This document shows positions 8,548 to 30,389 of a stretch of DNA of 64,000 nucleotides, piece after piece. The translations under genes and the position numbers were made by a program. Numbering within the stretch: the stretch's first letter is position 1; each line of letters opens with the position of its first letter. The notes below the pieces were generated by a model, which did not search any database, was not told the DNA's origin, and saw only the letters and a list, made by a program, of their open reading frames with translations. The DNA is from an uncultured Chloroflexia bacterium (lineage in GTDB: Bacteria; Chloroflexota; Limnocylindria; Limnocylindrales; CSP1-4): NCBI GenBank assembly GCA_963712745.1, contig CAVQJC010000011.1:289617-353616 (forward strand), in the 5' to 3' direction.

Positions 8548-8550
8548 CGG

Positions 8551-10209: not shown

Positions 10210-10383
10210 GCCATCCGATCTCCCGTGCCGGCGTGTACCGGTGGCGGGCTCGATGGCGTTCGCTGTCGGATGACCACTGAGGATAGGCTCGCCGGAGCGG
10301 CCGGATTCGCCGCTCTGCGTGCCATCAAGTCAGCGCCCGATCCCGACGGCATCCTCGACCCGGGCAAGGTGATGCCGGACTGA
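10210..10383 (+). pseudogene. Remnant of the extreme C-terminus of an FAD-linked (GlcD-type) oxidase
   Basis: The translation ends ...AALRAIKSAPDPDGILDPGKVMPD*, which resembles the conserved 'K..lDP.gilNPGK' tail of that family. No upstream FAD-binding domain is present. Confidence 0.35.
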
Positions 10384-10693
10384 TTGGTCGCTTTCAACGG
10401 GCCACCGGCGACCATCTTCCCGTCGTGCCGCTGTCTTCCGACCCGCTCCTGCTGAAATGGGGACGGATCAAGTGAGCATCGCATGCCCATGCGTGGCACG
10501 ATCAAGGCGGATGGAAACGCGGATCTGCTGACCAGACTTGCATCTGGAGGAGGAGCGGAGAGGCCCTGGCCGAGATCAGCGGGCTCGGCCGTGGCGCCCT
10601 TACCCCTATCGTCCCAGTCCACTAGATGGACGATGACGTTGCACAGCCATGTACCATCGAGCATCATCGCCGGTCCATGGGGTCACCAGCAGC

Positions 10694-11458: not shown

Positions 11459-11589
11459 GCGGCGGCTCGTCTGGACCGCTGGCCACGCAGCGTAGTTGTC
11501 CACTGAGTGGTCGATACGGTTGACGCTGCCGGAACGCTCCTTCTACCGTCCGGCGAAGCTGCGACGCAGAGCACGGAGGTATCGGGGGA

Positions 11590-12618: not shown

Positions 12619-12709
12619 GACAGGTGCCGCCACCACATGCCGGATCGGCCGACCTTTCGGACCGGTCCAGGTGTCTCAACCCCTTCACAGGGACAAGGAG
12701 GAAGTGGAC

Positions 12710-13717: not shown

Positions 13718-13829
13718 GGAGACCGTATCGGCCGCCCTCGCTCCCGTCGGCGATGACATCGTGGCGAACGCGGAACAGTACATCGTGAACACCTGGCCGC
13801 CGAGCTGATCGGCTAGGACTCGCACTTCG

Positions 13830-15377: not shown

Positions 15378-15378
15378 G

Positions 15379-16275
15379 ATGGCATCACCTTGGCCACTGA
15401 CCACCGGGCCATTGCCCGAGATCCAGCTCCGCGATCACGGTGTACGCACCCGTGCGGGCGCGATCTACTCTGTGCTTGAGGGCTATCGTCCACTTCGCCT
15501 GGATCTCTACCTACCGCCAGTGACGCGAGCTCCGGCACCGGTGGTCGTGTGGATCCACGGCGGGGCGTTCATGCACGGTGACCGGACCGCGTTGCCGCCA
15601 CTGCTCGAGCAGGAGCGCCTGTTCACGCGGCTGCCGCTGGCCGGCTATGCGGTGGCCTCGATCGAGTATCGCCTGAGCGGCGAGGCGATCTTTCCGGCTC
15701 AGCTCGAGGACGTGCAGGCCGGCATCCGCTGGCTGCGCGCTCGGGCCCACGAGCTTGAGATCGACCCTGCGCGCATGGCCGCTTGGGGTGAGTCAGCCGG
15801 TGGCCACCTGGCAGCCTTCGCTGGAGTCGCCGGTCGCCTCGACGCGACCGATGACGACGTGGAGTTCGCCGAACAGCCCACGAACGTCTCGGCCGTCGTG
15901 GACTGGTATGGGCCGACCGACTTCTCATCGATGGACCGGCAGGCAGGCGAGATCTCACGCATGAATCACGACGACCCCAATTCGCCGGAGTCGCGGCTCA
16001 TCGGAGCCCCGGTCCAGGAACGTCTCGACCTCGTAGAGCGCGCGGACCCGGCGATGCGTGCTACGGCTGCGACTCCGCCGTTCCTGGTCATGCATGGCAC
16101 CCGGGATGGGCTGGTGCCCTTTGGCCAGAGCCAGCACCTAGTGAGCCGGCTGAACGAGCTCGGTGTTTCCGTGGAGTTCCGCCCGGTCGAAGGCGCCGAT
16201 CACGTCTTCGAGGGCTTCGAGAAGGGGGGTGTTTTGGTAGACGAGGTGGTCGACTTCCTCGAACGCACTCTGTGA
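15379..16275 (+). CDS. Alpha/beta-hydrolase (HSL/esterase-lipase type)
   Basis: 'VWIHGGAFMHGD' oxyanion-hole motif and 'GESAGGHLA' nucleophile elbow. Starts 1 nt after the ATPase stop. Confidence 0.85.
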   Translation: MASPWPLTTGPLPEIQLRDHGVRTRAGAIYSVLEGYRPLRLDLYLPPVTRAPAPVVVWIHGGAFMHGDRTALPPLLEQERLFTRLPLAGYAVASIEYRLSGEAIFPAQLEDVQAGIRWLRARAHELEIDPARMAAWGESAGGHLAAFAGVAGRLDATDDDVEFAEQPTNVSAVVDWYGPTDFSSMDRQAGEISRMNHDDPNSPESRLIGAPVQERLDLVERADPAMRATAATPPFLVMHGTRDGLVPFGQSQHLVSRLNELGVSVEFRPVEGADHVFEGFEKGGVLVDEVVDFLERTL

Positions 16276-16418
16276 CCCGGGACTGAACCGGGTAGCAACC
16301 GACCGTCGCACCTCCGCGGACGGTCGAGGGGCATCGACCTCATCGCCGCAGCGAACGCGTCACGCGACAGGGCATATCCCGCGTGCGTGCCTGTTCGACT
16401 TGCGCGCCAACGACACTG

Positions 16419-17387
16419 ATGAGCGCACCAAACACCCGCACCGACACCACCGGCGTGGCCATCGTCTTCGGGGCAGCGGCGGCGCTGGGCACCCTCGGCG
16501 TCATCTCCAACCTGGCCTACGACGCCGGTATGTCGGCCGCGGTCTTCACGGCCCTGCGCGCGGCGCTCGGGACGGTGATCCTGGGCACGCTGGTACTGCT
16601 TCACCTCCAGCCCAGCACCAGCATCCGAGCACTGCCACGGCGCGAGAAGCGCCTGTTCCTCATCGCCATCGTGACGAACGGCTCCATGAACCTGTTGCTC
16701 TTCGCGGGCTTCGAGGTGATGACGGTGGCCCTGGTCATGACGGTCTTCTACACGTACCCCTTGATGGTGATGGTCGTCCAGGCTGTGCGCGGTCAGGAGC
16801 TGGTCACGCCGACACGCGTAGCCGCTCTGATCGTGGCCATGGCTGGACTCCTGCTGGTCATCGGCAGCCAGGTCGGACCGGACGCACACGTCTCGCTGGC
16901 AGGCATCGCGCTGGGGCTGGCTGCGGCGATGTGCCAAGCGGCCTACCTGGTCGTGTCTCGCGACGGCTATCCCTCCGTGCCCGCGGTGCAGGCAACCTCG
17001 TTGGTGCTCGTCGGCGGCGTGCTCATTTCAGGCTCCGCCGCGATCCTCACGGGCGGGGTCGGGTCGGTCAGCACGTGGGCCTCGGAGCCGGTCGCCTGGC
17101 TGGCCGTGATCGTGGCGGGAACGCTCGGTGCTGCCATCCCCAAGGTCATGCTGCTGGTGGGCGTCCGCCGTATCGGCGGCACACGCACAGCCACGGTCAT
17201 GCTCTCCGAGCCGGTGATGGCTGCCGCCTTCGCCGCCGTCGCATTGGGCCAGGAGGTGACCGTGGCTGAGGTCATCGGCGGGGCGGCGATCCTCCTGGGT
17301 GCTGCGCTGGTGCAGCGTCCATCAAGGCGCGACGCCGAAGCCCCCGGTCCGCCCGGGGCCGAGAGTGCCTGGGCCCCTCACGAGTGA
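16419..17387 (+). CDS. DMT-superfamily (EamA-like) transporter
   Basis: About ten hydrophobic helices in two EamA-like halves. No other motif. Confidence 0.8.
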   Translation: MSAPNTRTDTTGVAIVFGAAAALGTLGVISNLAYDAGMSAAVFTALRAALGTVILGTLVLLHLQPSTSIRALPRREKRLFLIAIVTNGSMNLLLFAGFEVMTVALVMTVFYTYPLMVMVVQAVRGQELVTPTRVAALIVAMAGLLLVIGSQVGPDAHVSLAGIALGLAAAMCQAAYLVVSRDGYPSVPAVQATSLVLVGGVLISGSAAILTGGVGSVSTWASEPVAWLAVIVAGTLGAAIPKVMLLVGVRRIGGTRTATVMLSEPVMAAAFAAVALGQEVTVAEVIGGAAILLGAALVQRPSRRDAEAPGPPGAESAWAPHE

Positions 17388-17636: not shown

Positions 17637-19736
17637 TCAGGTCTCTGCGAACAGATGTCTGGAGATCACGTGGTCCTGATACTCAGGCGACAGATCACAG
17701 AAGTAGCCGCTCCAGCCCCAGACCCGAACGATGAGGTCACGGTGGTCCTCGGGATGCGCCTTGGCCTCGATGAGCTTGCTCGCGCTCAGCGCGTTCAGCT
17801 GCAGTTGCTGGCCGCCGAGCTGGGCGAACGTGCGCACGAGCGTCGCGACCTTGCCGATCGAGCCCTCGCCCCGGAAGACCGAGTCGGAGAGCTCCAGCGT
17901 GATAGGGCCACCGTTGCAGATGCGACCGTAGTCGAGCTTGGAGTAGGACTGCAGGACGCTGATCGGGCCCCGCAGCCGGGTCCCTGGCGTGGGCGCAAGG
18001 TTTGCGCCGAATGGATCCCCCCGCCGGCGTCCGTCCGCTGTCGGACCGACGACGGGCTCAGGCAGCGGCCCGTCGCTGCGCCCCCGTGCGAGCCACAGGT
18101 AGTACATGGCCGTACCAGTGCCCGGGCGGACCACCAGCCCAGACCGATCGAGCTCCGCCTCGCAGGCGTCCGCCAGCCAGTCGTAGAGCTTCACGAGCAA
18201 GTCATCCACGAGCGGCTCATTCAGGCCAACGTGAGGACTCTCATTGGCCAGCCGGTTCCGGAGCGCCTCGTGACCGACGAAGTCATCATCGAGCGCACGG
18301 AGCACGTCTGCCGGCTCCGTGTCCGCCAGCTCGAAGACGTGCCGCTGGATCGCTGCGAGCGAGTCGGCCGCGCTCGCAGCGGCCGCGCCGTGGATACCGA
18401 GATTGCGGTACCTCGCCCCGCGGCCGTGATCGACACCGCGTTCCAGAGCGTTGGTCATGAGGACGGAGTACCAGGGCGCGGGCGCCCAGAGGAGTCGTTC
18501 ATATGGAGTTGTCCGCTCGCGGACCTGAAGGGCGATCTGCTCTCTGGTCAGGTCGAGGATGTCCTCGAAGGAAGCACCCGCATCCAGCCCCTCACGGATG
18601 GCATGGTCGGCCGCGGCCGGGAACGACACGGCGCCGATGTTGCCGACATCCATGCCACGACCCGGGATGATGAACTCCCAGCACGCAGCCACGGTGTAGT
18701 CGCGCGCATCCTCGAGGTCGTAGCCATGGCTCGCAAGGGCGGGGATGACGACATCATCGTTGGCGTACTGGGGGAAGCCAAGGCCCTTTCGTGTGAGCTC
18801 GGTGGCGAGCTCCAGAAGGGACTGGTCGGTAGCGGCGTTGATACGCAGGTTGACCTTGGGGTCGATAAGCCCGACATCCCGGGCCACGCGAAGAGCCATC
18901 CAAGTCAGTGGATTGACTGCGGAGTCACCAGCCGGCGTGGTGCCACCGAGCGTCATCGACTGACCGTTGTCTCCCTGCTGGATACCGGGATAGAGGTCGG
19001 AATCCCGATTGAGGGCGATGAAGAACTCGGCCAGCAGTTCCTCGGCGTCGGCTTCATCGAGGCGGTCCGATCCAAGGTCGGCCGACAGGTACGGCCAGAG
19101 GTACTGATCCAGACGGCCAAGCCCGACATGATGGTGTCCCGACAGCCAGACGATCGCCTGGAGGAAGCGCAGCGACTGCAGGGCTTCGTGGAAGGTTCGT
19201 GCCCCGTGCGCCGGCACATGCTCCAGTACCCGGGCCACCTCTTCCTTGCCCAGACGACGTGCCTCCGCCGCGTACCTGCCAGCCAGTGCGATGACGGCGT
19301 CGACGGTCTCGACTGCCGCATCGGTGAACTCGATCGCGTCATCGTCGCCGACGGCCACAGCTCGCGCGCGGGTCTCCAAGGCGACTCGGCGCCGCCCGGC
19401 AAGGCCCTGTCCGAGGGCCATGGCCCAGTCGGCACAGACGTTGTTGATGACCCCACCCTCGTGCAGGGTCCGACCCTCAGTCAGGGCCGCGAGGTCCGAG
19501 GTCGTATAGACGTCCGGGATGTCACGGAGGGTCCGGGTGAAGACGATGCGTTCTTCGGGCTCGATGACGACCCGTTCCGCTTCACACATGCGCCTTGTGA
19601 GCCGGGCTCGCCGCATCGGCCAGGAGAGACCCTGGCCATCGCACTCGCTGATGAGCTCTGGGGAGGCGCTTTGCCGGAAGCGCACGAAGTACCCGTCGCG
19701 CGTCCGCGCGCGCAGTCCTGTCAGTCTCTCGTTCAT
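17637..19736 (-). CDS. Glycyl-radical enzyme, PFL2/dehydratase-lyase-like, unusually compact (~699 aa)
   Basis: C-terminal 'DLIVRVWGWSGYFCDLSPEYQDHVISR' (RVxG Gly-radical motif). Cys-x-Glu loop 'TVAACWEFIIPGRG'. ATGA overlap with the activase stop. The ORF-track N-terminal extension to 19910 overlaps the activase and is rejected. Confidence 0.85.
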   Translation of the reverse strand: MNERLTGLRARTRDGYFVRFRQSASPELISECDGQGLSWPMRRARLTRRMCEAERVVIEPEERIVFTRTLRDIPDVYTTSDLAALTEGRTLHEGGVINNVCADWAMALGQGLAGRRRVALETRARAVAVGDDDAIEFTDAAVETVDAVIALAGRYAAEARRLGKEEVARVLEHVPAHGARTFHEALQSLRFLQAIVWLSGHHHVGLGRLDQYLWPYLSADLGSDRLDEADAEELLAEFFIALNRDSDLYPGIQQGDNGQSMTLGGTTPAGDSAVNPLTWMALRVARDVGLIDPKVNLRINAATDQSLLELATELTRKGLGFPQYANDDVVIPALASHGYDLEDARDYTVAACWEFIIPGRGMDVGNIGAVSFPAAADHAIREGLDAGASFEDILDLTREQIALQVRERTTPYERLLWAPAPWYSVLMTNALERGVDHGRGARYRNLGIHGAAAASAADSLAAIQRHVFELADTEPADVLRALDDDFVGHEALRNRLANESPHVGLNEPLVDDLLVKLYDWLADACEAELDRSGLVVRPGTGTAMYYLWLARGRSDGPLPEPVVGPTADGRRRGDPFGANLAPTPGTRLRGPISVLQSYSKLDYGRICNGGPITLELSDSVFRGEGSIGKVATLVRTFAQLGGQQLQLNALSASKLIEAKAHPEDHRDLIVRVWGWSGYFCDLSPEYQDHVISRHLFAET

Positions 19737-20488
19737 GCGACTCGAACCTCGATTCCCTCGCGCCTGAATGGCTCCAGGAGCGCGTTCGGCTGTTGATCCT
19801 CGGCGAATCCGGGGCTGAAGGTCATTCCACAGGCGGCGTACTTCGCCCCGGCTGCCCGGTTGTACGGAAGCAGCTGGACTTCGACCAGGGTGGGCGTCGT
19901 CGTGAGCCACCGGGCGATGGCATCGAGGTTGTCCCTTGTGTCGGTCACGCCCGGCACGAGCGGGACCCGCGCTACGAACGGTCGTGAAAGCCGCTCCAGC
20001 AGCGCCACGTTCCTGAGGATCTGCCCGTTCTCCTGTCCCGTCCAGCGTCGATGGGCATGCGGGTCGATGAGCTTGAGGTCGAGGAACAGGAGGTCGCAGC
20101 GTCCGGCCACGGAACAGAAGCTGTCGGCGTCCGCGTATCCCGAGGTGTCGAGCACGACGTGCGTGTCACCGAGCAGGTCGATGACGTCGGCTACGAAGCC
20201 TGCCTGCATGAGGGGCTCCCCGCCGGAGAACGTGAAGCCGCCTCCGCCCGCGGCCAGGATGTCGACCTGCCCGTTCAGCAGGCCGGCCAGCTCCTCTGCC
20301 TCGTAGCTGCGTCCCACCGTGCGCTCGCCTGCTGGTGAGCGCATCACTTGTGGGGCCATCTCCAGGCCCTCCGGGTTGTGGCACCAGGTGCAGCGAAGCG
20401 GGCAGCCCTTCATGAACACGGTGGTACGGATACCAGGCCCGTCATGGACCGTGAACTCGCGGATGTCGAAGACGATGCCCTGACTCAT
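19733..20488 (-). CDS. Glycyl-radical-enzyme activating protein (radical SAM)
   Basis: 'FTVHDGPGIRTTVFMKGCPLRCTWCHNPE' (CxxxCxxC), 251 aa, no additional ferredoxin-type Cys clusters. Confidence 0.9.
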   Translation of the reverse strand: MSQGIVFDIREFTVHDGPGIRTTVFMKGCPLRCTWCHNPEGLEMAPQVMRSPAGERTVGRSYEAEELAGLLNGQVDILAAGGGGFTFSGGEPLMQAGFVADVIDLLGDTHVVLDTSGYADADSFCSVAGRCDLLFLDLKLIDPHAHRRWTGQENGQILRNVALLERLSRPFVARVPLVPGVTDTRDNLDAIARWLTTTPTLVEVQLLPYNRAAGAKYAACGMTFSPGFAEDQQPNALLEPFRREGIEVRVA

Positions 20489-20519
20489 GGTGTGCGATCC
20501 CCCGGGAGGTGTGGCCCAG

Positions 20520-22118
20520 TCACGCGTCTGCTCCGGCGGATCCGTTCGTGTCGCCCACGTTCCTGTCCGGCAGCATCAAGGTCAGGAGCGACTGCTCGGT
20601 GGCCTCATCGCGTGCGACCTCGGCCGAGATCGAACCCGCGCGCATCACGTAGATGCGATCGCTCATGCTGATGATCTCAGGCAGGTCGGAGGAGATCATG
20701 AGGACCGCTCCGCCCCGGTCGGCGATGGCTTCCATGAGCTGGTAGAGCGCATAGCGCGCCGAGACGTCTACGCCGCGGGTAGGTTCATCGAGGACGTAGA
20801 CGAGCCGGTCGCGAGCCAACCACTTGCCGATCGCCACGCGCTGCTGATTGCCGCCGCTCAGGGTGAACGCTGGCTGGCGCACCGTGCGGGCCACGATGCT
20901 CAGCTCCTCCACCAGCGAGCTTGCCAGTCCTTCCTCCCGACCGGGGCTGACGAGCGGCCCCGGGCCCAGGCGCGGCCACTCCGTGATGGCCAGGTTGCGC
21001 ACGATCGGTAGCGACAGGATGACGCCCTGGTCCTTGCGGTTCTCGGGGACGAAGGCGAATCCGGCGTCGAGACGACGGCGCATCGGCCACGACGTGACGT
21101 CAACTCCGTTGAGGAGCACCGAGCCTGACTCCGCCGGGTCCGCCCCCACGATGACGCGGGCCAGCTCAGTCCTGCCGGCGCCGACCAGTCCGGCGACACC
21201 GACGATCTCACCCCGTCTGACCGTGATCGAGACAGCTGCCGGAGCCCCGACCGGCAGCAGGTCCCGGGTCTCCAGGGCGATGTCACCCGGCGTCGACCGA
21301 CCACGCTGGTAGACCGAGTCGAGATGGCGGCCAACCATCCGCTCGACGATCTCGTCCTTGCTGGTCTCGCTGGTTCGAAGTGTTCCCGTGGAGCGACCAT
21401 CCTTCAGGACCGAGACCCGGTCAGAGATGGTGAAGACCTCGTCGAGTCGATGCGTGACGAAGAGGATGCCTAATCCCTCCGAGCGCAGCCGTCGCAGCAG
21501 TTCGAAGAGTCGCTCCGTCTCGAAACGGCTGAGGCTGGCCGTGGGTTCATCAAGGATGAGGATGCGCGAGCGTTCGTTCAGCGCCCGCGCGATCTCCACC
21601 AGCTGCTGCTGCGACGTCGAGAGTCGCTCGACCGGGGTGTCCGGATCGATGGCCACGCTGAGCGTGGCGATGGCGTCGGTCGCCTGCCGCCGCATCTCGC
21701 CCTTGTCCAGGCGGCGTCCCCGACGCAACTCCCGACCCAGGAACATGTTCTCCACGACCGTCAGGTGTGGCGCCAGGCTGAACTCCTGCCAGATGACCGC
21801 GATGCCCTCCTTGCGCACCCGGGAGATCGTGGTCTCCCCGCGGTAGCGGCCCATCACATGCAGGCTCCCGCCCTCGTAGGGGAGGGCCCCACCGAGGATC
21901 TTGATCAGCGTCGACTTGCCGGCGCCGTTCTCGCCTACGAGCGCGTGGACCTCGCCCGCTCGCAGCTCGAGGGAGGCATCCGCCAACAGCAGCACATCCG
22001 TGCCCCGGATCGGCCGACCTTCGTCGTCGTACGCGAACTTCTGCACGTGTTGGGCGTCAAGCAGGACGGTCTCTGCAGTCTCTTGAGTCGCCGCAGCGCC
22101 TTCTCCCACGGTCGTCAC
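20520..22118 (-). CDS. Sugar ABC transporter ATP-binding protein (duplicated ATPase)
   Basis: 'GENGAGKST', 'LSTSQQQLVEI', 'LSGGNQQRV', 532 aa. Confidence 0.9.
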   Translation of the reverse strand: MTTVGEGAAATQETAETVLLDAQHVQKFAYDDEGRPIRGTDVLLLADASLELRAGEVHALVGENGAGKSTLIKILGGALPYEGGSLHVMGRYRGETTISRVRKEGIAVIWQEFSLAPHLTVVENMFLGRELRRGRRLDKGEMRRQATDAIATLSVAIDPDTPVERLSTSQQQLVEIARALNERSRILILDEPTASLSRFETERLFELLRRLRSEGLGILFVTHRLDEVFTISDRVSVLKDGRSTGTLRTSETSKDEIVERMVGRHLDSVYQRGRSTPGDIALETRDLLPVGAPAAVSITVRRGEIVGVAGLVGAGRTELARVIVGADPAESGSVLLNGVDVTSWPMRRRLDAGFAFVPENRKDQGVILSLPIVRNLAITEWPRLGPGPLVSPGREEGLASSLVEELSIVARTVRQPAFTLSGGNQQRVAIGKWLARDRLVYVLDEPTRGVDVSARYALYQLMEAIADRGGAVLMISSDLPEIISMSDRIYVMRAGSISAEVARDEATEQSLLTLMLPDRNVGDTNGSAGADA

Positions 22119-23155
22119 GTCCGTTCGCCCAGGTATCGACTACGCGCGGCGTCGATGACCAGTGATGTGACGATGAGCAGGCCCATCACCGCCTGGTAGA
22201 GGAGTGGCGTGATGTTGAGCAGGACGATGCAGTTGCCGATGGTGCGGATGATGATGGCGCCGATGATCACCCCTACCACGGTGCCGCGGCCGCCGAAGAG
22301 GCTGGTGCCGCCGACGACCGCAGCAGTGATGGTCTCGAAGGTCGTGTTGAAGCCGCCGAGCGTCGGCACGCCGATCTGCACACGGGAGGTGAGCATCACT
22401 GCCGCCAGGGCGGCCATCCCGCTCCCGATGGCGAAGCAGGTCACGACGATCCTGGGGACGCGGATGCCGGAGAGGCCGGCGGTCACGCGGTTGTAGCCGA
22501 CAGCTACGACCGAGCGGCCGAACGTCGAGCGGTTGAGCACGATCCAGGCGAGAGCAGCCACTACTGCCGCCAAGACCACGAGATAGGGGATCCCGAAGAG
22601 GAATCCGGTCTGCAGACCGACGAACAGGTCGTCGGCCGGCATCGAGAGCATGCTGCCCGCCGAGATCATCTGCGCGATGGCGTAGGCGATGTAGAAGCTG
22701 CCCAGGGTCGTGATGAAGGCCGGGATACGGACCCACTGGACGAGGACGCCGTTGAACAGACCGAAGGCGACGCCTGTCCCGAGGGCCACTGTAAGCGACA
22801 AGGCAAAGTTGCCAGTCTCGATCATGACCGTCACGAGGACGACCGATGTCAGGCCGTACACCGCGCCCACCGACAGGTCGATGCCGCCGATAAGCAGTAC
22901 GAACAGGATGCCGATCGCCGCGACCGAGAGGTCAGAAGCCTGACGCAGGACATTGCGGATGTTGTCGAGGCTCCCGAAGTTCGGTACGAACAGGGCCGCC
23001 AGGATCCACATCACGATGAGGAGCCCCAACAGGCCCAAGGTCGGGTTCCGGCTGATCCGATCCCACATCGCGGCCAGGCGACCTCGCGAGGTCGCCGCGG
23101 CGGGCTCGGGGGTGGTCCGGGGCCCGCCTGTCACGGTCCTCTCGGGATCGCTCAT
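22115..23155 (-). CDS. Sugar ABC transporter permease (CUT2)
   Basis: Multi-TM with 'GGIDLSVGAV'. 4-nt overlaps on both sides. Confidence 0.9.
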   Translation of the reverse strand: MSDPERTVTGGPRTTPEPAAATSRGRLAAMWDRISRNPTLGLLGLLIVMWILAALFVPNFGSLDNIRNVLRQASDLSVAAIGILFVLLIGGIDLSVGAVYGLTSVVLVTVMIETGNFALSLTVALGTGVAFGLFNGVLVQWVRIPAFITTLGSFYIAYAIAQMISAGSMLSMPADDLFVGLQTGFLFGIPYLVVLAAVVAALAWIVLNRSTFGRSVVAVGYNRVTAGLSGIRVPRIVVTCFAIGSGMAALAAVMLTSRVQIGVPTLGGFNTTFETITAAVVGGTSLFGGRGTVVGVIIGAIIIRTIGNCIVLLNITPLLYQAVMGLLIVTSLVIDAARSRYLGERT

Positions 23156-24075
23156 GTGCTGCGGACGCCCCGGGCGCGCACGACTGCCCTGCTCAGGGCA
23201 TCACGAAGGACCGGACCCTGGACCGTCACGAGCACCGCCAGGATGATGAGCATGCCCGTGACGAGGTCCTGCATGAACGGTTGCACACCCTGCAGGTTCA
23301 GGATGTTGCGGATCGCGACCAGGAAGACGGCACCCGCGCCGGCGGCCCAGAGATGTCCGCGGCCGCCGAAGAGGTCGACTCCTCCGATGACGCAAGCGGC
23401 CACAGCGGACAGCGTGAACGGTTCCCCCTGCAGCGGGCTGGCCGTTCCCAGTCGCGCGGCCAGCATCGTTCCGGCCGTTGCGGCCAGCAGCCCGGACACG
23501 ACATAGGCACTTGACAGGATGCGGAGGACCGGGACACCGGATAGGCGGGCAACGGCCAGGTTGTCTCCCGTCGCTCGCAGGTGCACGCCCCAGCTCGTCA
23601 TGCGCCAGACAACCTCCAGCAGGACGAGGACGGTGACTGCCAAGACGACCAGGTAGGGGATCCCGAGGACGCCATCGTTACCGAGCGACACCAACTCGGG
23701 CGGGAGGAGCGGGCGACCGACCAGGTCGGCCAGATAGAGGGCCAGGCCGGCGGCGATGCCCAGCGTTCCAAAGGTAGCGATGAACGGCGGCAGCTTGAGG
23801 CGGGAGACGATGACGGCATTGATGGCTCCGAACGCCACGCCCGCCGCCAGGCCGGCGATCACGGCCAGCGGCCAGGCTACGCCGATGCTCACGAGCGCGA
23901 CCTCCAGCACGCCCACGAGAGACATCACGCCACCGATCGACAGATCGATACCGCCGGTGACGATGACGAGGGTCATGCCGAACGCCGCCACCGACAGGAT
24001 CGCTGCCTGGGACACGACGTTCTCGAGGTTGGGGAGCGTCGCGAAGTAGGGCACGAACTGGCCCACGAGCAGCAC
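23152..24075 (-). CDS. Sugar ABC transporter permease (CUT2); the 5' end appears frame-disrupted (likely original start ATG 24143)
   Basis: 'GGIDLSIGGV' permease body. As read from GTG 24075 the first TM helix is missing. It is encoded in another frame (SLPLLLIAVA) just upstream, behind an SD-ATG at 24143. Confidence 0.8.
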   Translation of the reverse strand: MLLVGQFVPYFATLPNLENVVSQAAILSVAAFGMTLVIVTGGIDLSIGGVMSLVGVLEVALVSIGVAWPLAVIAGLAAGVAFGAINAVIVSRLKLPPFIATFGTLGIAAGLALYLADLVGRPLLPPELVSLGNDGVLGIPYLVVLAVTVLVLLEVVWRMTSWGVHLRATGDNLAVARLSGVPVLRILSSAYVVSGLLAATAGTMLAARLGTASPLQGEPFTLSAVAACVIGGVDLFGGRGHLWAAGAGAVFLVAIRNILNLQGVQPFMQDLVTGMLIILAVLVTVQGPVLRDALSRAVVRARGVRST

Positions 24076-24169
24076 GCGCCACGGCGATCAGCAGCAACGG
24101 CAGCGATCGCGCGTGGCAGTCGGTCCCTCTGGCGGCTGGGCATCCCCAGGGCCTCCGCTGAAGAGCTGG

Positions 24170-24190
24170 CGCACCCCCGTGCGGGGTGCG
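24170..24190 (-). terminator. Intercistronic GC-rich stem-loop (8-bp stem, 5-nt loop) just after the binding-protein gene; attenuator or mRNA-stabiliser type
   Basis: On the minus strand CGCACCCC-gcacg-GGGGTGCG. No U-tract. It sits between the SBP stop (24216) and the permease start. Confidence 0.35.
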
Positions 24191-24215
24191 TCAGCGCACT
24201 TGGACTGGGTGGACC

Positions 24216-25184
24216 CTAGAAGGCCTTCTCCATGGCCTCTTCGGCGTTGTCGATCGTCACCGTGGTGGTGCCTGAATCGATGTACTTCTCGAGTGAGCCG
24301 GGCTCGATCTCACCGTTCGCGATGCCCACAGCGAACTCTGCCGCCATGGAGCCCATGGCCATCGGGTCCTGGGTGTTGTCAGCCAGGAGCTTGCCGTCGA
24401 GGACGCCCTGGATGCCGACCGTGGAACCGTCGATGGCGAGGACCGCCACGTCGGTCTTGCCTGCCCCGGCGAGTGCCTGGAGGATGCCGTCGACCATGAC
24501 GTCACTGGCCGAAAGGACGGCCTGGAGGTCGGGGTTGGCGGTCAGGATGTTCTCCATCGCGGCCAATGCCATGGCGTTGTCCCATTCCCCGGTGGCAGAC
24601 GCCACAGGCGTGATCCCGCCCGAGGCCAGGCCCTCGTTGAAGCCGGTGAGGCGGTCGTCGCCGGCAACCGAGCCGGGTGCGCCCTCGATGATGGCGACCT
24701 TGAGCTCGGGATCGGGCATCGCCGTGACGAGATACGTCGCCAACTCGCGCCCGGCATTCACGTTGTCGGTCGCGATGAGGGTCTCGTACAGCTCTTCGTT
24801 GCCGGCCGCGATGGGCTGGTCGACCAGGATGACCGGGACGCCGGCATCCTTGGCCTTCTGCAGCGCCGGCAGGACCGCCGAACCGTCGAGCGGGCTCACG
24901 ATGATGCCGTCGACCTGCTGCGTGACGAGGTCTTCCAGCTGGCTGGACTGGCTGGCCACAGCGGTCTGCCCACCAGCGACCAGCAGCTGGACCGTACCGC
25001 CCAGCTCCTCGACCTTGTCCGTTGCCGCCTGCACCCAGGCGGCCTGGAACGGATCGTTGGTGATGGTCTTGACGGACAGTCCGATGACCGGGCCGTCGTC
25101 CTGGGCGACCGCGCCCGCGGGCACCATCGCCACAACTAGTGCTGCTGCCGCAATGACAGCTGAGCTGACACCAAGACGTCGCAT
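24216..25184 (-). CDS. Sugar ABC substrate-binding protein (PBP type I, ribose/arabinose-like)
   Basis: GGAGA SD plus ATG 25184. Signal peptide MRRLGVSSAVIAAAALVVAMVPAGAVAQDD. Periplasmic-binding fold length (322 aa). Confidence 0.85.
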   Translation of the reverse strand: MRRLGVSSAVIAAAALVVAMVPAGAVAQDDGPVIGLSVKTITNDPFQAAWVQAATDKVEELGGTVQLLVAGGQTAVASQSSQLEDLVTQQVDGIIVSPLDGSAVLPALQKAKDAGVPVILVDQPIAAGNEELYETLIATDNVNAGRELATYLVTAMPDPELKVAIIEGAPGSVAGDDRLTGFNEGLASGGITPVASATGEWDNAMALAAMENILTANPDLQAVLSASDVMVDGILQALAGAGKTDVAVLAIDGSTVGIQGVLDGKLLADNTQDPMAMGSMAAEFAVGIANGEIEPGSLEKYIDSGTTTVTIDNAEEAMEKAF

Positions 25185-25378
25185 GAGTGATTCTCCGTTC
25201 TTGTGGTCTTTCGGCCACACTTCTGTCTTCGCCGTGGATGCCTCGGATGCCGTTGACTGGGTCCTGGGCGCCGATATCAGCGCCCGCCGCCGGCTCGGTT
25301 CATCCGTTACCATCCGGTGGTCTCGTTCGTAGTGGCCCGGTTCGTCACCCCCCTCCGCCTGCAGACTGTGATGAGTTC

Positions 25379-26881
25379 CTAGACGGCACCGGCAAGATGC
25401 CAGTAGGCGTTGCTCCACTGCACTTCCTTGCGGAAGCGGCGAGCCGTCGTGTCAGCGTCGATGGCGACCAGCTCGACCCCGACCATCTCGGCGAAGTCCT
25501 CGATGACCTCGAGACCGACCGCCTGCGAGTAGGCCGTGTGGTGCGGGCCGCCCGCCAACAGCCACGACTCGGCCGCGGTGGTGAAGTCCGGCTTGGGCAC
25601 CCACAACGCACGGGCCACAGGCAGCTTCGGCAGGTCCGAGGGCGGGTCGATGGCGTCGATCTCGTTGGCCACCAAGCGCAGGCGCGTGCCCATGTCGACC
25701 AGGCCCACCACGACACCCGGACCGGCGGCACCGCTGAACACGAGTCGCACCGGGTCCTCGCGTTCGCCCACGAAGAGGGGATGGATCTCGCATGCGGGCG
25801 TGGCGGCGGCGATGGTCGGACAGATCTCCAGCATGTGCGCCCCGAGCACGGCCGTCTGCGGTGCCCCGAAGTCGTAGGTGTAGTCCTCCATGAACGAGAC
25901 GCCACCCTCGAGCCCTTCGCTCATGGCCTTGACGATGCGCACGAGCATCGACGACTTCCAGTCGCCCTCCGCGCCGAAGCCATAGCCGTCGGCCATGAGC
26001 CGCTGGGCCCCGATGCCCGGCAGCTGCTTCAGGCCGCCCAGGTCCTCGAAGGTGTCGACGAAGGCCATCGAACCGCGCTCGGTGAGGAAGGCCCGCAGGC
26101 CCAGCTCGATGCGGGCCGCATCACGCAGGGACTCGCGCCGGTCGCCTCCGGGGCGCAGCTCGGGCACGACCTCGTAGCGCTCGTCGTACTCGGCGCAGAG
26201 TCGGTCGACCTCGGCATCGGCCACCTGGTCCACGACCGCGGCCAGCTCGTTGACCGGGTAGGTGTTGCAGGCGGCGCCGAAGCGGGCCTGCACCTCGACC
26301 TTGTCGCCGTCGGTGTCGGCCACCTCGCGCATGTTGTCGCCGAAGCGGATGACCCGCAGGTCGCGCGCCTCGTGGGCGCCGGCCGCCGCGCGCATCCAGG
26401 CGCCGACACGACGCTGCACGCCCGCCTCCTGCCAGTGGCCGGCCACGGTCTTGCGCGGTATCCGCAGGCGCGACACGATGTAGGCGAACTCGCGGTCGCC
26501 ATGGGCCGACTGGTTGAGGTTCATGAACTCCATGTCGATGGCGCCGTAGGGCAGGTCGGCGCCGTACTGGGTATGCAGGTGCAGGAACGGCTTGGTCAAC
26601 GCCTGCAGCCCCGCGATCCACATCTTGGCCGGGCTGAACGTGTGCATCCAGCCGATGACGCCGATGCAGCTGTCGTCCGCGGAGGCATCGATGCAGGCGC
26701 GGCGGATGCCATCAGGGTCGAGCAGCGTGGGTGTGTGAACGATCTCGACAGGGATGTCCGGAGCGGCCCCAAGGCCAGCGACGATACGTGCTGATTGCTC
26801 GGCGACTTGCCGCCGAGTCTCCTCGCCGTAGTAGTGCAGGCTCCCCGTCAGGAAGATGATCCGCAGCCCGTCGAACGCCAT
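25379..26881 (-). CDS. araA: L-arabinose isomerase
   Basis: 'WMHTFSPAKMWI.GL', 'IDMEFMNLNQSAHGDREF', 500 aa from ATG 26881 (GAGGAGGAAG SD). Confidence 0.9.
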   Translation of the reverse strand: MAFDGLRIIFLTGSLHYYGEETRRQVAEQSARIVAGLGAAPDIPVEIVHTPTLLDPDGIRRACIDASADDSCIGVIGWMHTFSPAKMWIAGLQALTKPFLHLHTQYGADLPYGAIDMEFMNLNQSAHGDREFAYIVSRLRIPRKTVAGHWQEAGVQRRVGAWMRAAAGAHEARDLRVIRFGDNMREVADTDGDKVEVQARFGAACNTYPVNELAAVVDQVADAEVDRLCAEYDERYEVVPELRPGGDRRESLRDAARIELGLRAFLTERGSMAFVDTFEDLGGLKQLPGIGAQRLMADGYGFGAEGDWKSSMLVRIVKAMSEGLEGGVSFMEDYTYDFGAPQTAVLGAHMLEICPTIAAATPACEIHPLFVGEREDPVRLVFSGAAGPGVVVGLVDMGTRLRLVANEIDAIDPPSDLPKLPVARALWVPKPDFTTAAESWLLAGGPHHTAYSQAVGLEVIEDFAEMVGVELVAIDADTTARRFRKEVQWSNAYWHLAGAV

Positions 26882-26925: not shown

Positions 26926-26953
26926 TGCAAGCGATTGTATGCAAGCGCATGTG
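26926..26953. promoter_or_regulatory. Two adjacent TGCAAGCG-containing half-palindromes (TGCAAGCGATTGTA / TGCAAGCGCATGTG); candidate LacI-family operators between araA and lacI
   Basis: They resemble the TG-AA-CG..-TT-CA architecture of LacI/GalR operators and lie in the divergent intergenic region. Confidence 0.25.
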
Positions 26954-27052
26954 CCAGCGTCAACCAGTACGCTGGAGCCCCATAGGCGTCAATGACACGA
27001 CCCGATGCAGCCCGGCCGCTACGATGGGAGGCCGGAGGCACCAAGGACAGCC

Positions 27053-28165
27053 ATGACACGAGCCAAGCGGCGAGTTCACCCGAGTCCTGTCGACACCACG
27101 CCCGCCGTGTCCGCGAATGTCGCTGCGGGCGTGCCCACGATGCGTGACATCGCCAAGGCCACCAGCGTCTCGCAATCGACGGTGTCACGGATCCTGAGCG
27201 GCACTCCCACTGCCATCCCCATCGCGGAGGCGACACGCGAACGGGTCCTGGAGACGGCCAAGCGTCTCGGCTACAGACCCAACCCACTGGCGCGTGGACT
27301 GATGGGCGCACGGACCATGCTTCTCGGCGCCATCGTCCGAGACATCACCGACCCGAGCTTTCCAGCCATCATCGAGGCTGTCACCACCGAAGCCGGCAGA
27401 CACGGCTACAACGTCGTGCTGGGCCATGCCCGAGGGAGCGCAGGCGAAGCGGTCGAGCTCTGGGCCATCCTGGAATCGCGCCACTGCGACGCGATCCTGT
27501 TGCTTGGTGACTTGAGCAATCAGCCGGCGCTCATCGAAGGCCTTGAGAGCACGCGCGAGCCGGTCGTGGCGCTCTGGCACGGCTCACGTTCTACCGTGAT
27601 CCCGACCGTCAACGTCAACAACCGCAGCGCGATCACGACCCTGATGGAGCATCTCGCCTCGCTGGGGCACGAGCGCATCGCCTTCGTCGGCAGGAAGCAG
27701 TTGGGAGACATCGTAGAGCGTGGGGAGGCCTATGAGGCCTTCCTCGAGCGCCAAGGCTGGCAGATCAACCCGGAGTACATGCCAGACGCCATCAACGAGT
27801 ACGAAGGCGGCATGGAGGCGCTGCATCGTCTGATGGATCTGGAGGAGCCCCCGACGGCCATCGTCGGCGCGACCGATGTCCTTGCCATCGGCCTGGTGCA
27901 CGCGGCGCTCCAGCGGGGCCTCCGGGTGCCGGAGGATGTGTCGGTGACCGGTATCGACGACATCCCGGGGGCTCATGTGATCATGCCGCCCCTGACGACG
28001 ATGCGGATGCCCGTGCGGGCCATGGTCAAGGCCGCGATAGACATCGCCATCGGCTCGCTTGATCGAGAGTCCCACCCCGTGGTGGATGTCCACCCGGTGT
28101 TCGAGGCCGAACTCGTGGTTCGCGGTTCCACGGGGCCCCCACCTGATGCACCGACACGCGCATGA
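27053..28165 (+). CDS. LacI-family transcriptional regulator; start uncertain
   Basis: 'PTMRDIAKATSVSQSTVSRILSG' HTH plus a periplasmic-binding-like effector domain. Confidence 0.85.
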   Translation: MTRAKRRVHPSPVDTTPAVSANVAAGVPTMRDIAKATSVSQSTVSRILSGTPTAIPIAEATRERVLETAKRLGYRPNPLARGLMGARTMLLGAIVRDITDPSFPAIIEAVTTEAGRHGYNVVLGHARGSAGEAVELWAILESRHCDAILLLGDLSNQPALIEGLESTREPVVALWHGSRSTVIPTVNVNNRSAITTLMEHLASLGHERIAFVGRKQLGDIVERGEAYEAFLERQGWQINPEYMPDAINEYEGGMEALHRLMDLEEPPTAIVGATDVLAIGLVHAALQRGLRVPEDVSVTGIDDIPGAHVIMPPLTTMRMPVRAMVKAAIDIAIGSLDRESHPVVDVHPVFEAELVVRGSTGPPPDAPTRA

Positions 28166-28433: not shown

Positions 28434-28508
28434 TGGCTGGCGAGGAAGGATTCGAACCTTCAATCCCCTGATCCAGAGTCAGGTGCCTTACCGTTTGGCC
28501 ACTCGCCA
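28434..28508 (-). tRNA. tRNA-Gln (anticodon CUG), CCA encoded
   Basis: Manual cloverleaf: acceptor TGGCGAG/CTCGCCA, D-arm GCC-AAACGGTAA-GGC, anticodon arm CCTGA-CTCTGGA-TCAGG, T-arm GAAGG-TTCGAAT-CCTTC, discriminator G, CCA. Confidence 0.9.
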
Positions 28509-28621: not shown

Positions 28622-30241
28622 GTGCCCGAGATCATCCATGGCATCGAACGCCGCCCGTTGGAGTCCGGCAAATCGCTGTTCGATTATGCCGACGAGGTCT
28701 CGGTCGCCGTTCCCCAATCGTGTGGCCGCTCGGGCCGCTGCCGCGAGTGCGTGGTCGAGGTCCGCCAGGGCGGTGATGCCCTCTCGCCCCGCACCGAAGC
28801 GGAGGAGTACCTGCCCGCCGATTTCCGGCTTGCCTGCCAGGCGGAGATCGTCTCGCTCGACCACGACGTCGAGTTCGCCATCATCCGCCGGCGCATGCAT
28901 ATCCTCGAGGAGGCCGGTGAGCCCATCACCGAGATCGACCCCGTCGTCACCACCACCGAGCACGCGGTGCTCTACGACGGCGTCACGCTGGACCTGCGCC
29001 GCCAGCACGTGCTGGGCCTGGCCGTCGACGTGGGCACGACCACGGTCGTCTTCCGTCTCATCGACCTGACCGACGGCCACGTCGTGAGCGGCGGTGCCTT
29101 CGAGAACCCCCAGCGCTTTGGCGGCAGCGACGTGATGAGTCGCATCGGGTATGAGCGCGACCACCCCGGCACCTTGCGCAAGGCTCTCCGGCGTGCGCTC
29201 AACGCGGGCCTCAAGGACATCTACAAGGAGCTGAGCATCGACCGCCACGAGGTCTACGAGGCCATGGTCGTGGCCAACTCCACGATGCGCGATCTCTTCT
29301 TCGACATCGACGTCCGGCCCATCGGCGAGATGCCCTACAAGTCGGTGACCGAGCTGGCCGTGCTCCGTGGCGAGACCGACTCCACCTGGGTCAGCAAGCG
29401 CGCCTACGAGCTGGGCATCCTCATCCACCCGCAGGCCCGCGTGGTCGGTGCTCCGCTCATCGCCAGCCACGTGGGCGGGGATGTGGCGGCTGACCTGGTC
29501 GCTACCGACTTCGGCTCGGCGCCCGGCTCCAGCCTGCTCATCGACATCGGCACCAACACCGAGATCGTGGCCACCGACGGCAAGCACATCGTGGCCGCGT
29601 CGAGCCCGGCCGGTCCGGCCTTCGAGGGCGGCATGCTGCGCTTCGGCATGGCCGGCGCTGACGGCGCCATCGAGGCGGTCCACATCAACGACGACGAGTT
29701 CGTCTACCAGGTCATCGGTGGCTACGAGCCCGAGGGCATCTGCGGCTCCGGCCTGGTCGACATCATCGCCGAGCTGCGCCGCCTCGAATGGATGAGCCCG
29801 GAGGGTCGCTTCATCCACGGCGGCAGCGAGTACGCCATCGCACCCCTGCGCGGCATCACCTTCTCGCGTTCCGACGCCAGCCAGCTGGCCCAGGCCAAGG
29901 CCTCCAACGCCTCGGGCCAGCGCATCCTGCTGCGGCGACTGGGCCTGGCCGCGGACGAGGTCGACCACATCTACCTCGCCGGCGGCTTCGCCAATGCCAT
30001 CGACATCGAGAACGCCATCGCCATCGGCTTCCTGGCCCAGGTCCGGCCAGAGCGTGTGGAGCGGGTCGGCAACTCCGCCCTGCGTGGCGCCACCATGCTG
30101 CTGCTTTCACGTCGGCGGCGCGAGTCGCTGAGCGAGCTCATCGGCCGCATCGAACACGTCGAGCTGGAGACCGAACCCGATTTCTTCGACCTCTTCGTCG
30201 ACGGCTGCCTCTTCCATCCCATCCCCACCGCCGCCGCATAG
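28622..30241 (+). CDS. RACo-like reductive activator of corrinoid proteins (N-terminal [2Fe-2S] ferredoxin + ASKHA/DUF4445 ATPase)
   Basis: 'SCGRSGRCRECVVEV...RLACQA' Cys pattern. 'LGLAVDVGTTTVVFRLIDL' and 'LIDIGTNTEIV' ASKHA phosphate motifs. 539 aa, GTG start. Confidence 0.8.
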   Translation: MPEIIHGIERRPLESGKSLFDYADEVSVAVPQSCGRSGRCRECVVEVRQGGDALSPRTEAEEYLPADFRLACQAEIVSLDHDVEFAIIRRRMHILEEAGEPITEIDPVVTTTEHAVLYDGVTLDLRRQHVLGLAVDVGTTTVVFRLIDLTDGHVVSGGAFENPQRFGGSDVMSRIGYERDHPGTLRKALRRALNAGLKDIYKELSIDRHEVYEAMVVANSTMRDLFFDIDVRPIGEMPYKSVTELAVLRGETDSTWVSKRAYELGILIHPQARVVGAPLIASHVGGDVAADLVATDFGSAPGSSLLIDIGTNTEIVATDGKHIVAASSPAGPAFEGGMLRFGMAGADGAIEAVHINDDEFVYQVIGGYEPEGICGSGLVDIIAELRRLEWMSPEGRFIHGGSEYAIAPLRGITFSRSDASQLAQAKASNASGQRILLRRLGLAADEVDHIYLAGGFANAIDIENAIAIGFLAQVRPERVERVGNSALRGATMLLLSRRRRESLSELIGRIEHVELETEPDFFDLFVDGCLFHPIPTAAA

Positions 30242-30389
30242 GGCGGCCACGGCCGACGTCGCAGCGTGGGCTGGACCCCGGTCCCTCCGCCGAGGTCGTA
30301 GTCCGTTCGGCAGTCGACACCGTCGTGAGGGCGCTGGCACCATCGAGGCAGGGCGCCGAGCTGGTGTGCCCCGTTCCGGAGGAATGGAC

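Follow-up and report, generated by a model that had tools for sequence, protein, structure and literature searches.

A widespread family of compact glycyl-radical enzymes, represented with a ferredoxin-less activase in an araA and sugar transporter operon of an uncultured Chloroflexota bacterium

Analysis of a 64,000-nt stretch of contig CAVQJC010000011.1 from an uncultured Chloroflexia bacterium (referred to here as the window) identified a compact glycyl-radical enzyme (GRE) that is a member of a distinct, conserved, and widespread family. The enzyme and its activase are encoded at the end of a run of seven genes, all on the minus strand and in the same direction between positions 17637 and 26881: araA, a sugar-binding protein, two permeases, a fused ATPase, the activase, and the GRE. 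An initial annotation made from the sequence letters had proposed this set, and each of the seven genes was present with the domains assigned to it (Pfam and NCBIfam). By analogy with characterized enzymes, and with about an even chance of being right, the GRE would be a radical C-O lyase or dehydratase acting on the pentose that is imported, whether L-arabinose, L-ribulose, or a sugar of closely related stereochemistry, in a LacI-controlled pentose operon.

The GRE (17637 to 19736, minus strand; 699 aa) consists of a PFL-like domain (PF02901, E = 1.8e-85) and a Gly_radical domain (PF01228, E = 7.6e-19). Alignment placed its glycyl-radical loop RVWGWSGYF (17700 to 17726, minus strand; G674 is the predicted radical site) and its Cys loop AACWEF (18672 to 18689, minus strand) at the catalytic positions, as expected from the RVxG motif and Cys-x-Glu loop recognized earlier. 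In the latter loop, C352 is the predicted thiyl-radical Cys and E354, two residues past it (C352-W353-E354), the predicted general base. All three residues are in register with the catalytic residues of Escherichia coli PflD, of YbiW, and of glycerol dehydratase (C433/E435/G763 in the last), and they are kept in at least 97% of 76 family sequences of 41 to 100% identity. Across the same 76 sequences, 128 GRE positions are at least 97% conserved. The two tryptophans flanking the radical glycine, W673 and W675 (W-G-W), are unusual and specific to the family. The barrel and glycine-radical domains, the Gly and Cys in register, and the cognate activase nearby place the protein in the PFL-like superfamily, and it is very probable that it is a catalytically competent Cys-x-Glu GRE. 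Its shortness, which had also been pointed out, was confirmed: known enzymes have 765 to 850 aa, and the alignment traced the difference chiefly to a deletion of ~55 aa in the N-terminal region, after residue 70, plus smaller trims.

A structure prediction and a pocket comparison had been suggested as checks. The AlphaFold model, built on 73 family sequences (pLDDT 86.5, pTM 0.89), superposes on all Cys-x-Glu GREs with query-normalized TM-scores of 0.81 to 0.85 at 21 to 26% identity. The fold is therefore canonical, yet roughly equidistant from every characterized enzyme. The top structural matches were PflD, propanediol dehydratase, CutC, and glycerol dehydratase. A search of solved structures likewise gave PflD as the best relative (230 bits, ~26 to 30% identity), with CutC, the propanediol and glycerol dehydratases, HypD, and YbiW at 190 to 223 bits. 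The pocket was compared by alignment positions, using the glycerol contacts of glycerol dehydratase, which a review (PMC13450708) supports in part. Wherever they could be mapped, the contact positions are all replaced in the GRE, and most of the replacements are family-invariant. H164 becomes an invariant N99, although PflD and YbiW retain the His; H281/S282 become H202/H203; D447 becomes N366; and the Y339 loop becomes an invariant P250-G-x-Q-x-G-D-N-G-Q259. Y640 is ambiguous, as it corresponds to W548 by HMMER and to G541 when the MAFFT alignment is anchored on a common Pro-Gly, the anchoring being our own. The general-acid His of the dehydratases is thus absent from the GRE (N99), and this His is not universal in the Cys-x-Glu class.

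Placement with profile hidden Markov models, another of the suggested checks, reached no curated GRE family in NCBIfam. The scores were 310.7 bits against a cut-off of 678.2 for the PFL2/glycerol dehydratase subfamily (TIGR01774), 254.5 against 1109 for the PflD model NF007437, 233.6 against 1100 for HypD, 223.4 against 1050 for CutC, 234.6 against 1000 for the sulfopropanediol dehydratases HpsG/HpfG, and 39.7 against 994.2 for pyruvate formate-lyase (TIGR01255). For all equivalogs (PflD, HypD, CutC, sulfopropanediol dehydratases, decarboxylases, and PFL), the score was four or more times under the cut-off. An assignment as pyruvate formate-lyase was rejected on this score and because the Cys loop reads A-C-W-E instead of Cys-Cys. 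The suggestion that the enzyme lies outside the characterized families therefore stands: the protein falls inside none of them, its best solved relative reaches only 230 bits, the glycerol dehydratase contacts are replaced, and its Gly and Cys motifs do align with the catalytic positions.

Comparison with the nearest known systems showed likenesses and differences in each case. PflD is both the best sequence match and the top structural match, with Cys-x-Glu and glycine loop in register. PflD and YbiW, the 1,5-anhydromannitol-6-phosphate and 1,5-anhydroglucitol-6-phosphate C-O lyases ("GRE isomerases"), act on sugars by hydrogen abstraction at the carbinol carbon followed by C-O heterolysis (PMC13450708). 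However, their identity to the GRE is only 26 to 30%, the GRE is 66 to 111 residues shorter and has lost the His at the N99 position, and their activases PflC and YbiY carry a ferredoxin domain that the window activase does not have. They also use a phosphotransferase system, whereas GRE loci have ABC or sugar-porter (MFS) import; neither phosphotransferase-system nor fructose-6-phosphate aldolase genes were seen at the GRE loci, unlike in the PflD/YbiW context. The substrate of the GRE system would therefore arrive unphosphorylated. The B12-independent glycerol and 1,2-propanediol dehydratases share the fold (query-normalized TM-score 0.82 to 0.85) and Cys-x-Glu, and their vicinal-diol dehydration is the simplest analogue of the chemistry proposed here, but every mapped substrate contact is changed in the GRE, whose context is a sugar transporter with no aldehyde-processing or microcompartment genes nearby. 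HypD, CutC, IslA/IseG, and HpsG share the fold and the Gly/Cys/Glu triad at a sequence and structural distance similar to that of PflD; they differ in that the GRE scores 4 to 5 times under every equivalog cut-off and in their unrelated contexts. No description of an arabinose-linked, compact, or corrinoid-associated GRE was found in the literature searched, and the catalogue of characterized GREs in a 2026 review contains no arabinose-linked or compact one (PMC13450708). What appears new is the sequence family, the gene context, and an activase architecture not previously tied to eliminase-type GREs, the GRE-activase pair itself being of a known kind. The substrate is probably new for a GRE.

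The family is large and taxonomically broad. Thousands of proteins matched in a search of 5.8 billion; the best 120 were all 60 to 100% identical to the window GRE and mostly 694 to 699 aa long. In a profile search of 1.84 billion representatives, the first tier comprised ~20 full-length 50%-identity clusters of 685 to 702 aa scoring more than 580 bits; other short GREs (640 to 745 aa) followed at 330 to 570 bits and canonical GREs (770 to 810 aa) at ~330 bits. A one-genome-per-species search gave at least 513 genomic matches. Among the best 80 matches were Chloroflexota, Planctomycetota, Verrucomicrobiota, Acidobacteriota, Lentisphaerota, Kiritimatiellota, Bacillota, Bacteroidota, Spirochaetota, Synergistota, Actinomycetota, Pseudomonadota, and Gastranaerophilales. 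Nearly all of these 80 are metagenome-assembled genomes (MAGs). In all, the family spans about 14 phyla, and the closest relatives of the window GRE are found in Limnocylindrales-type Chloroflexota. The homologs carry the generic public names "pyruvate formate-lyase" or "formate C-acetyltransferase". A sister clade (L118 to L120) has still shorter GREs (650 to 666 aa), activases of 270 to 283 aa, and a divergently encoded regulator of the AraC family. One of its loci has a GH43 gene and a CUT1 ABC system nearby, again a glycan context.

The second distinctive component is the activase (19733 to 20488, minus strand), a GRE-activating radical-SAM enzyme of 251 aa without a ferredoxin-like domain. 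It scored 203.6 against the TIGR02494 cut-off of 174.35, as two stretches that skip the Cys-rich insert, and 148.9 against the TIGR02493 cut-off of 231.75. Its sole cluster motif is the radical-SAM [4Fe-4S] motif CPLRCTWC (20381 to 20404, minus strand), and a cysteine census found no CxxCxxCxxxC motif in the protein, in agreement with its earlier description as a cluster-only activase. A Cys-free stretch of 52 residues separates the CX3CX2C and GGEP motifs. At loci with a GRE at least 50% identical, the activases are all alike, with 251 to 268 aa and no ferredoxin-type motif. In a distant clade with GREs 41 to 47% identical (loci L067 to L069, L071 to L073, and L078 to L080, from Bacillota, Bacteroidota, Lentisphaerota, and a rumen Planctomycetota), the spacer is 80 to 89 residues long, and nine of the 10 activases have two CxxCxxCxxxC motifs and one has a single motif. 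The boundary between ferredoxin-bearing and ferredoxin-less activases thus coincides with the split between these two GRE clades, and the W-G-W glycine loop is common to both. In an alignment that included YbiY, the window activase was 44% identical to a ferredoxin-bearing family member, 32% to PflC, and 27% to PflA. On this alignment evidence, the absence of the ferredoxin-like domain is a secondary loss inside the GRE family, since distant members keep the domain and the window activase is nearer to ferredoxin-bearing activases than to PflA.

An assignment as a PflA-type activase was rejected on the same identities and because TIGR02494 was passed and TIGR02493 failed. The resemblance to PflA is in size (246 versus 251 aa), the lone CX3CX2C cluster, and the presence of a radical-SAM domain only, but the window activase keeps a 52-residue Cys-free stub where its relatives have the 80- to 89-residue insert with two motifs. 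Activases of the majority type have about eight additional Cys residues in these two motifs, downstream of the cluster motif. The vast majority of GRE activases carry a ferredoxin domain, the exceptions being those of PFL and class III ribonucleotide reductase, and the function of the domain was described as unknown in a 2026 review (PMC13450708). A natural loss within a single GRE family would provide matched enzyme pairs, that is, orthologous systems with and without the domain in which its role is directly testable.

The operon begins with araA (25379 to 26881, minus strand), which encodes a 500-aa L-arabinose isomerase (NF002795, 742.5 bits against a cut-off of 622; three AraA Pfam domains). 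Its start at 26881, implied by the end coordinate of the initial annotation, is preceded by the ribosome-binding site GAGGAGG. The binding protein (24216 to 25184, minus strand; 322 aa) is a secreted, CUT2-type, ribose-binding-protein-like sugar-binding protein (Peripla_BP_4), and its start is at 25184, at the signal peptide MRRLGVSSAVIAAAALVV, rather than at the longest-ORF start. Permeases 1 (23152 to 24075) and 2 (22115 to 23155), both BPD_transp_2, and the fused double ABC ATPase with two ABC_tran domains (20520 to 22118) follow on the minus strand. As in the E. coli AraFGH/AraA system, araA reaches the equivalog cut-off, and the ATPase and permeases have AraG and AraH as their top NCBIfam matches. 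However, these matches fall under the cut-offs (482 versus 689 bits for AraG; 177 and 158 versus 378 for AraH), and the window differs from E. coli in having two permeases, a binding protein that is not AraF-like, and no araB or araD. The binding protein is of the fold family of ribose-binding proteins, as in RbsB-type CUT2 systems; its top model, RbsB, scored 126 against a cut-off of 337.

The initial description of 4-nt overlaps or short gaps between the genes applied to part of the operon. Permease 2 overlaps each of its neighbors (permease 1 and the ATPase) by 4 nt, the GRE start codon is part of an ATGA shared with the activase stop (4-nt overlap), and 31 nt, with a GGGGGA upstream of the activase, separate the ATPase stop from the activase start. 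The description does not fit the 194-nt gap between araA and the binding-protein gene or the 140-nt gap between the latter and permease 1, which contains a GC-rich hairpin with 13-nt arms (24165 to 24195). The overlaps, the 31-nt gap, and the lack of any excess of terminator-like sites over chance within the operon support co-transcription of the genes, which we infer. A LacI-family regulator (Pfam LacI and Peripla_BP_1/3) is divergently encoded on the plus strand; its longest ORF spans 27005 to 28165, but translation probably starts near 27140, given that the helix-turn-helix domain does not begin until ORF residue 45. The same divergent LacI-araA layout was found in loci L003, L051, L077, and L081. 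A promoter-like TTGACG-18-TACAAT (26934 to 26963, minus strand) lies 53 nt upstream of the araA start and is only suggestive, because one such site was observed against 0.8 expected by chance. An inverted-repeat search of the intergenic regions showed no LacI-type palindromic operator, and an Rfam scan of the operon gave no riboswitch or other RNA. As had been claimed for araB and araD, no homologs of these genes, nor of GH51, GH127, or galK, occur anywhere in the 64 kb. Nor were the aldehyde dehydrogenase and microcompartment shell protein genes whose absence had been noted found among the annotated window genes, with eight window ORFs outside the Pfam scan. The GRE gene has a GC3 of 0.80 and a codon-position GC like that of its neighbors, and therefore shows no sign of recent foreign origin; a recent foreign insertion was rejected on this match to the neighboring genes and the host.

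A survey of gene neighborhoods, also proposed as a check, showed that this GRE is repeatedly associated, in different phyla, with a sugar ABC transporter, araA, and arabinofuranosidases. Every ORF no more than 10 kb from the GRE was included in a clustering of 80 genome-derived loci plus the window (81 in total), and cluster representatives were annotated; ORF calling and clustering were our own and were done on MAG contigs, and 12 of the 80 genome-derived loci extend over less than 10 kb. The activase adjoins the GRE in 66 to 70 of the 81 loci, a sugar transporter (CUT2-type ABC parts or a sugar-porter MFS protein) is present in 49, and a LacI gene is present in 30. At least one arabinose-specific gene (araA, AraD-like, GH51, or GH127) was found in 30 loci from seven phyla, frequently running in the same direction as the GRE. 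These include araA in 12 to 13 loci, an AraD-like class II aldolase/epimerase in eight, GH51 and GH51-like alpha-L-arabinofuranosidases with 15 cluster occurrences, and GH127 beta-L-arabinofuranosidase in seven loci. No other sugar-specific pathway gene was seen among the gene clusters present in at least five loci. With about one araA per genome, and with 20 kb amounting to far less than 1% of a genome, the occurrence of araA near the GRE in 12 of 81 loci appears far above chance.

Individual loci illustrate the association. In the Planctomycetota loci L028 and L031, genes for LacI, the binding protein, the ATPase, and the permease are followed, in this order, by those for the activase, the GRE, a GH51-like protein, and GH51. 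In two distant-clade loci, Bacteroidota L069 and unclassified L080, GH51, an MFS transporter, the activase, and the GRE stand together with an aldose 1-epimerase nearby. The araA gene lies upstream of the transporter in the lineage of the window and directly downstream of the GRE in Anaerolineales, which makes two independent arrangements. In Anaerolineales, araA is followed by genes for an M24 peptidase, a Zn-dependent dehydrogenase, an FGGY-family kinase, and an AraD-like protein; at L008, both araA (827 bits, cut-off 622) and the AraD-like gene (339 bits, cut-off 251) pass their models. The FGGY kinase found with araA and AraD-like genes (L008, 15770 to 17374; L034 and L022, 1039 to 2650) is not an AraB equivalog; its sole match, XylB, reaches 112 of the required 380 bits.

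Two further sets of neighbors were observed. A DUF4867 protein adjoins the module in two distant-clade metagenome lineages (L100, 6490 to 7341; L102, 10248 to 13741), and at L102 the next genes encode an acid-sugar kinase of the DUF1537 type (SBD_N/NBD_C), a class II aldolase-like protein, and a HAD hydrolase. All of these may act downstream of the GRE; DUF4867 and the DUF1537-type kinase were found in only two or three metagenome loci and in no others. Anaerolineales-type loci (L006, L008, L013 to L015, L017, L019, L025, L027, L043, L057, L061, and L082) contain three to four URO-D-family genes and a corrinoid (B12-binding) protein gene at locus coordinates of ~5 to 9.2 kb. These genes are flanked by a sugar-type ABC transporter on one side and the activase-GRE pair on the other, and a transglutaminase-like gene is found on the opposite strand.

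The transporter provided a separate line of evidence. When metagenome contigs were searched with the binding protein as the seed, all relatives of at least 41% identity on long-enough contigs had the activase and GRE adjoining the transporter (eight loci: L086, L091, L094 to L096, L098, L100, and L102; GRE identity 41 to 86%), whereas relatives of 39% identity or less had no activase or GRE beside the transporter. Since a search with the binding protein recovers the GRE again, transporter, activase, and GRE are inherited as one module. Among solved structures, the best relatives of the binding protein are ribose-binding proteins (2ioy, 131 bits; E. coli RBP, 111 bits). Of the 11 ribose contacts of E. 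coli RBP, six are kept and five are changed, so the ligand is probably a free monosaccharide that is related but not identical to ribose. The smallest recurring unit consists of a regulator, a monosaccharide transporter, the activase, and the GRE, which points to the imported sugar, or an immediate isomer of it, as the substrate of the GRE.

Together with the chemistry of the enzyme class, this context leads to graded proposals for function. It is likely that the substrate is a sugar tied to arabinose utilization; that it is arabinose or ribulose itself is somewhat less likely than not. The operon would be a LacI-controlled pentose-utilization unit in which the ribose-binding-protein-like ABC transporter imports a free monosaccharide and AraA interconverts L-arabinose and L-ribulose, and the last two genes would supply an oxygen-sensitive radical enzyme system, making the operon an O2-sensitive route for an imported sugar. 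Characterized Cys-x-Glu GREs abstract hydrogen at a carbinol or adjacent carbon, with the Glu acting on the hydroxyl, and expel a neighboring O, N, or S substituent (PMC13450708). Applied to a pentose by analogy, this scheme predicts a deoxy-keto sugar. The activase, using S-adenosylmethionine and its single [4Fe-4S] cluster, would generate the radical on G674, from which it would pass to C352. The C352 thiyl radical would then take a hydrogen atom from a hydroxyl-bearing sugar carbon, E354 would deprotonate the hydroxyl on that carbon, and the resulting ketyl radical would expel an oxygen from the neighboring carbon, either a hydroxyl (dehydration) or a ring or ether oxygen. Return of the hydrogen atom would give a deoxy-keto sugar usable by ordinary kinases, reductases, and aldolases. 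In one possible version, L-ribulose would be converted to 5-deoxy-2,4-pentodiulose, which after reduction, phosphorylation, and class II aldolase cleavage would yield dihydroxyacetone phosphate and acetaldehyde; the dehydrogenase, FGGY kinase, and aldolase-family genes of Anaerolineales and Acidobacteriota could serve these steps. In its boldest form, which is doubtful, the proposal would have the enzyme use a free plant pentose (L-arabinose or L-ribulose) directly, without prior phosphorylation, as the entry to a radical deoxy-sugar route in uncultured anaerobes of more than 10 phyla.

Several observations weigh against a pentose C-O lyase. About 60% of the loci have no arabinose-specific gene inside 10 kb, in a census that rests on our own ORF clustering of MAGs and includes the 12 short loci, and a search of unlabeled neighbor clusters found no downstream enzyme universally tied to the GRE. 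Where glycerol dehydratase has H164, which donates a proton to the leaving hydroxyl, the GRE has the invariant N99, and the family-invariant loop at 250 to 257 is the lowest-confidence part of the AlphaFold model. In Anaerolineales, the classical AraA/kinase/AraD route adjoins the GRE, so that a second pentose route seems redundant. Finally, YbiW-like C1-O5 opening of L-arabinopyranose would yield L-ribulose, the product of AraA itself, which would make dehydration, cleavage elsewhere, or another sugar more plausible.

That last option has some support of its own. The substrate could be a rarer or modified monosaccharide released along with arabinose from glycans of plants or algae (O-methyl, anhydro or ether-bridged, furanose-locked, or deoxy), from which radical beta-elimination would remove the modification, for example as methanol or an ether oxygen, so that the product enters arabinose or galactose pathways. 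A dedicated transporter and regulator that co-evolve with the GRE are typical of a module for a separate substrate, and in Anaerolineales such a module stands beside a complete AraA/kinase/AraD set. Moreover, PflD and YbiW, the nearest solved relatives, open anhydro-sugar ethers (PMC13450708). Of 37 Chloroflexota loci, 19 have one to four methyltransferase-like genes of the URO-D family separating the transporter from the activase and GRE genes, and 13 of these also encode a corrinoid protein, which could mean methylated substrates. In addition, the binding protein differs at five of the 11 ribose contacts. Yet the URO-D/corrinoid genes are confined to Chloroflexota and absent beside the window operon (the nearest, a fusion gene, is at a distance of 35 kb), no neighboring enzyme indicates a candidate modified sugar, and arabinofuranosidases release plain L-arabinose. 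We consider a modified sugar unlikely as the substrate. A pentose-derived small diol is improbable. The GRE would then be a dehydratase of the glycerol, 1,2-propanediol, or ethylene-glycol type, disposing of a product such as glycolaldehyde via ethylene glycol to acetaldehyde, and the shared fold and Cys-x-Glu, the propanediol and glycerol dehydratases among the top structural matches, and the Zn-dependent and short-chain dehydrogenases that flank the GRE in Acidobacteriota (a Zn-dependent one also in Anaerolineales) fit this role. Ethylene glycol is a possible product of pentose fermentation (PMC11255663). However, all the mapped glycerol contacts are changed (H164 to N99, H281/S282 to H202/H203, D447 to N366, and Y640 to G541 or W548), no aldehyde dehydrogenase or microcompartment genes are among the annotated neighbors in the window or related loci, and a minimal module made up of a regulator, a sugar transporter, the activase, and the GRE speaks for a substrate that is a transported sugar.

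Plant cell wall glycoproteins offer a further candidate. Characterized GH127 members act on hydroxyproline-linked arabinosides, and GH127 beta-L-arabinofuranosidases occur in seven loci, an M24 (prolidase-like) peptidase gene lies inside the arabinose cluster of five Anaerolineales loci, and a transglutaminase-like protein is encoded in 12. These genes would suit an enzyme acting on hydroxyproline or the hydroxyproline-O-arabinosides of extensins and expelling water or sugar, as HypD expels water. This is very improbable: the GRE reaches 234 of the 1100 bits that the HypD model requires, the binding protein belongs to a type that takes monosaccharides (ribose-binding), no pyrroline-5-carboxylate reductase is among the annotated recurrent gene clusters, and the peptidase genes are confined to one lineage. 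The public names of the homologs, and the formate-tetrahydrofolate ligase and formate dehydrogenase also encoded in the window, would suit an ordinary formate-lyase acting on pyruvate or another 2-ketoacid. But with A-C-W-E and no Cys-Cys in the Cys loop, 39.7 bits against 994 in TIGR01255, and just 55 bits for PflB in the solved-structure search, there is next to no chance of this. Equally slight is the chance that the adjacency is fortuitous or that the activase-GRE pair is decaying and plays no part in sugar use. Many loci have no arabinose genes; against this, 128 positions are at least 97% conserved in 76 sequences from ~14 phyla, codon usage matches the host genome, and the module was recovered independently from the binding-protein search.

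If the proposed action on a pentose tied to arabinose or arabinan use is correct, the GRE would add an oxygen-sensitive step to the breakdown of a very common plant sugar. Each GRE clade assigned so far has revealed a new pathway, and GREs carry out anaerobic reactions that have no nonradical equivalent. The lineages concerned (Chloroflexota, Planctomycetota, Verrucomicrobiota, Acidobacteriota, and others from soil, peat, sediment, rumen, and gut) are almost wholly uncultured, and the public name "pyruvate formate-lyase" would mislead metabolic reconstruction of their genomes.

Other features of the window were recorded. A second sugar locus (9453 to 17387, plus strand) converges on the GRE operon and encodes an SIS-domain protein, an IclR regulator, a CUT2 system (permease, binding protein, and ATPase, 11590 to 15377), a BD-FAE-family (feruloyl-esterase-like) esterase (15379 to 16275), and an EamA transporter (16383 to 17387); upstream of it are a CUT1 ABC system and a ROK-family protein (5340 to 9456). 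On the other side, the LacI gene and a tRNA-Gln (CTG; 28434 to 28508, minus strand) separate the operon from a RACo-like corrinoid reductive activator (28622 to 30241, plus strand; Fer2, RACo middle, and RACo C-terminal domains) and a Kelch-repeat protein (30366 to 32036, plus strand). A one-carbon cluster on the minus strand (55103 to 62924) encodes a 318-aa fusion protein with a URO-D-family C-terminal half and a B12-binding domain (55103 to 56059), a formate-tetrahydrofolate ligase (56465 to 58168), a molybdopterin protein that resembles formate dehydrogenase and has a NuoG-like Fe-S region at its N terminus (58206 to 60998), and a NuoF-like flavoprotein (60999 to 62924). The RACo-like activator together with the URO-D/B12 fusion suggests that the organism runs corrinoid methyl transfer. 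Genes for a 2-oxoacid dehydrogenase complex (E1 alpha, E1 beta, and E2) and a DeoR regulator, and further on for TelA-like and von Willebrand factor A-domain proteins, occupy 34279 to 38718 and 41789 to 44746 (minus strand); the listed ORFs of E1 alpha (36586 to 37884) and E1 beta (35574 to 36992) overlap by ~400 nt, which means that at least one start is over-extended. Lastly, two tandem paralogs of 1163 aa, each with an AAA_16 domain, lie at 46350 to 53329 (plus strand). They are 70% identical across 1122 residues without a gap, their ORFs overlap by 4 nt, and the pair looks like a recent tandem duplication of a large signaling or regulatory ATPase.

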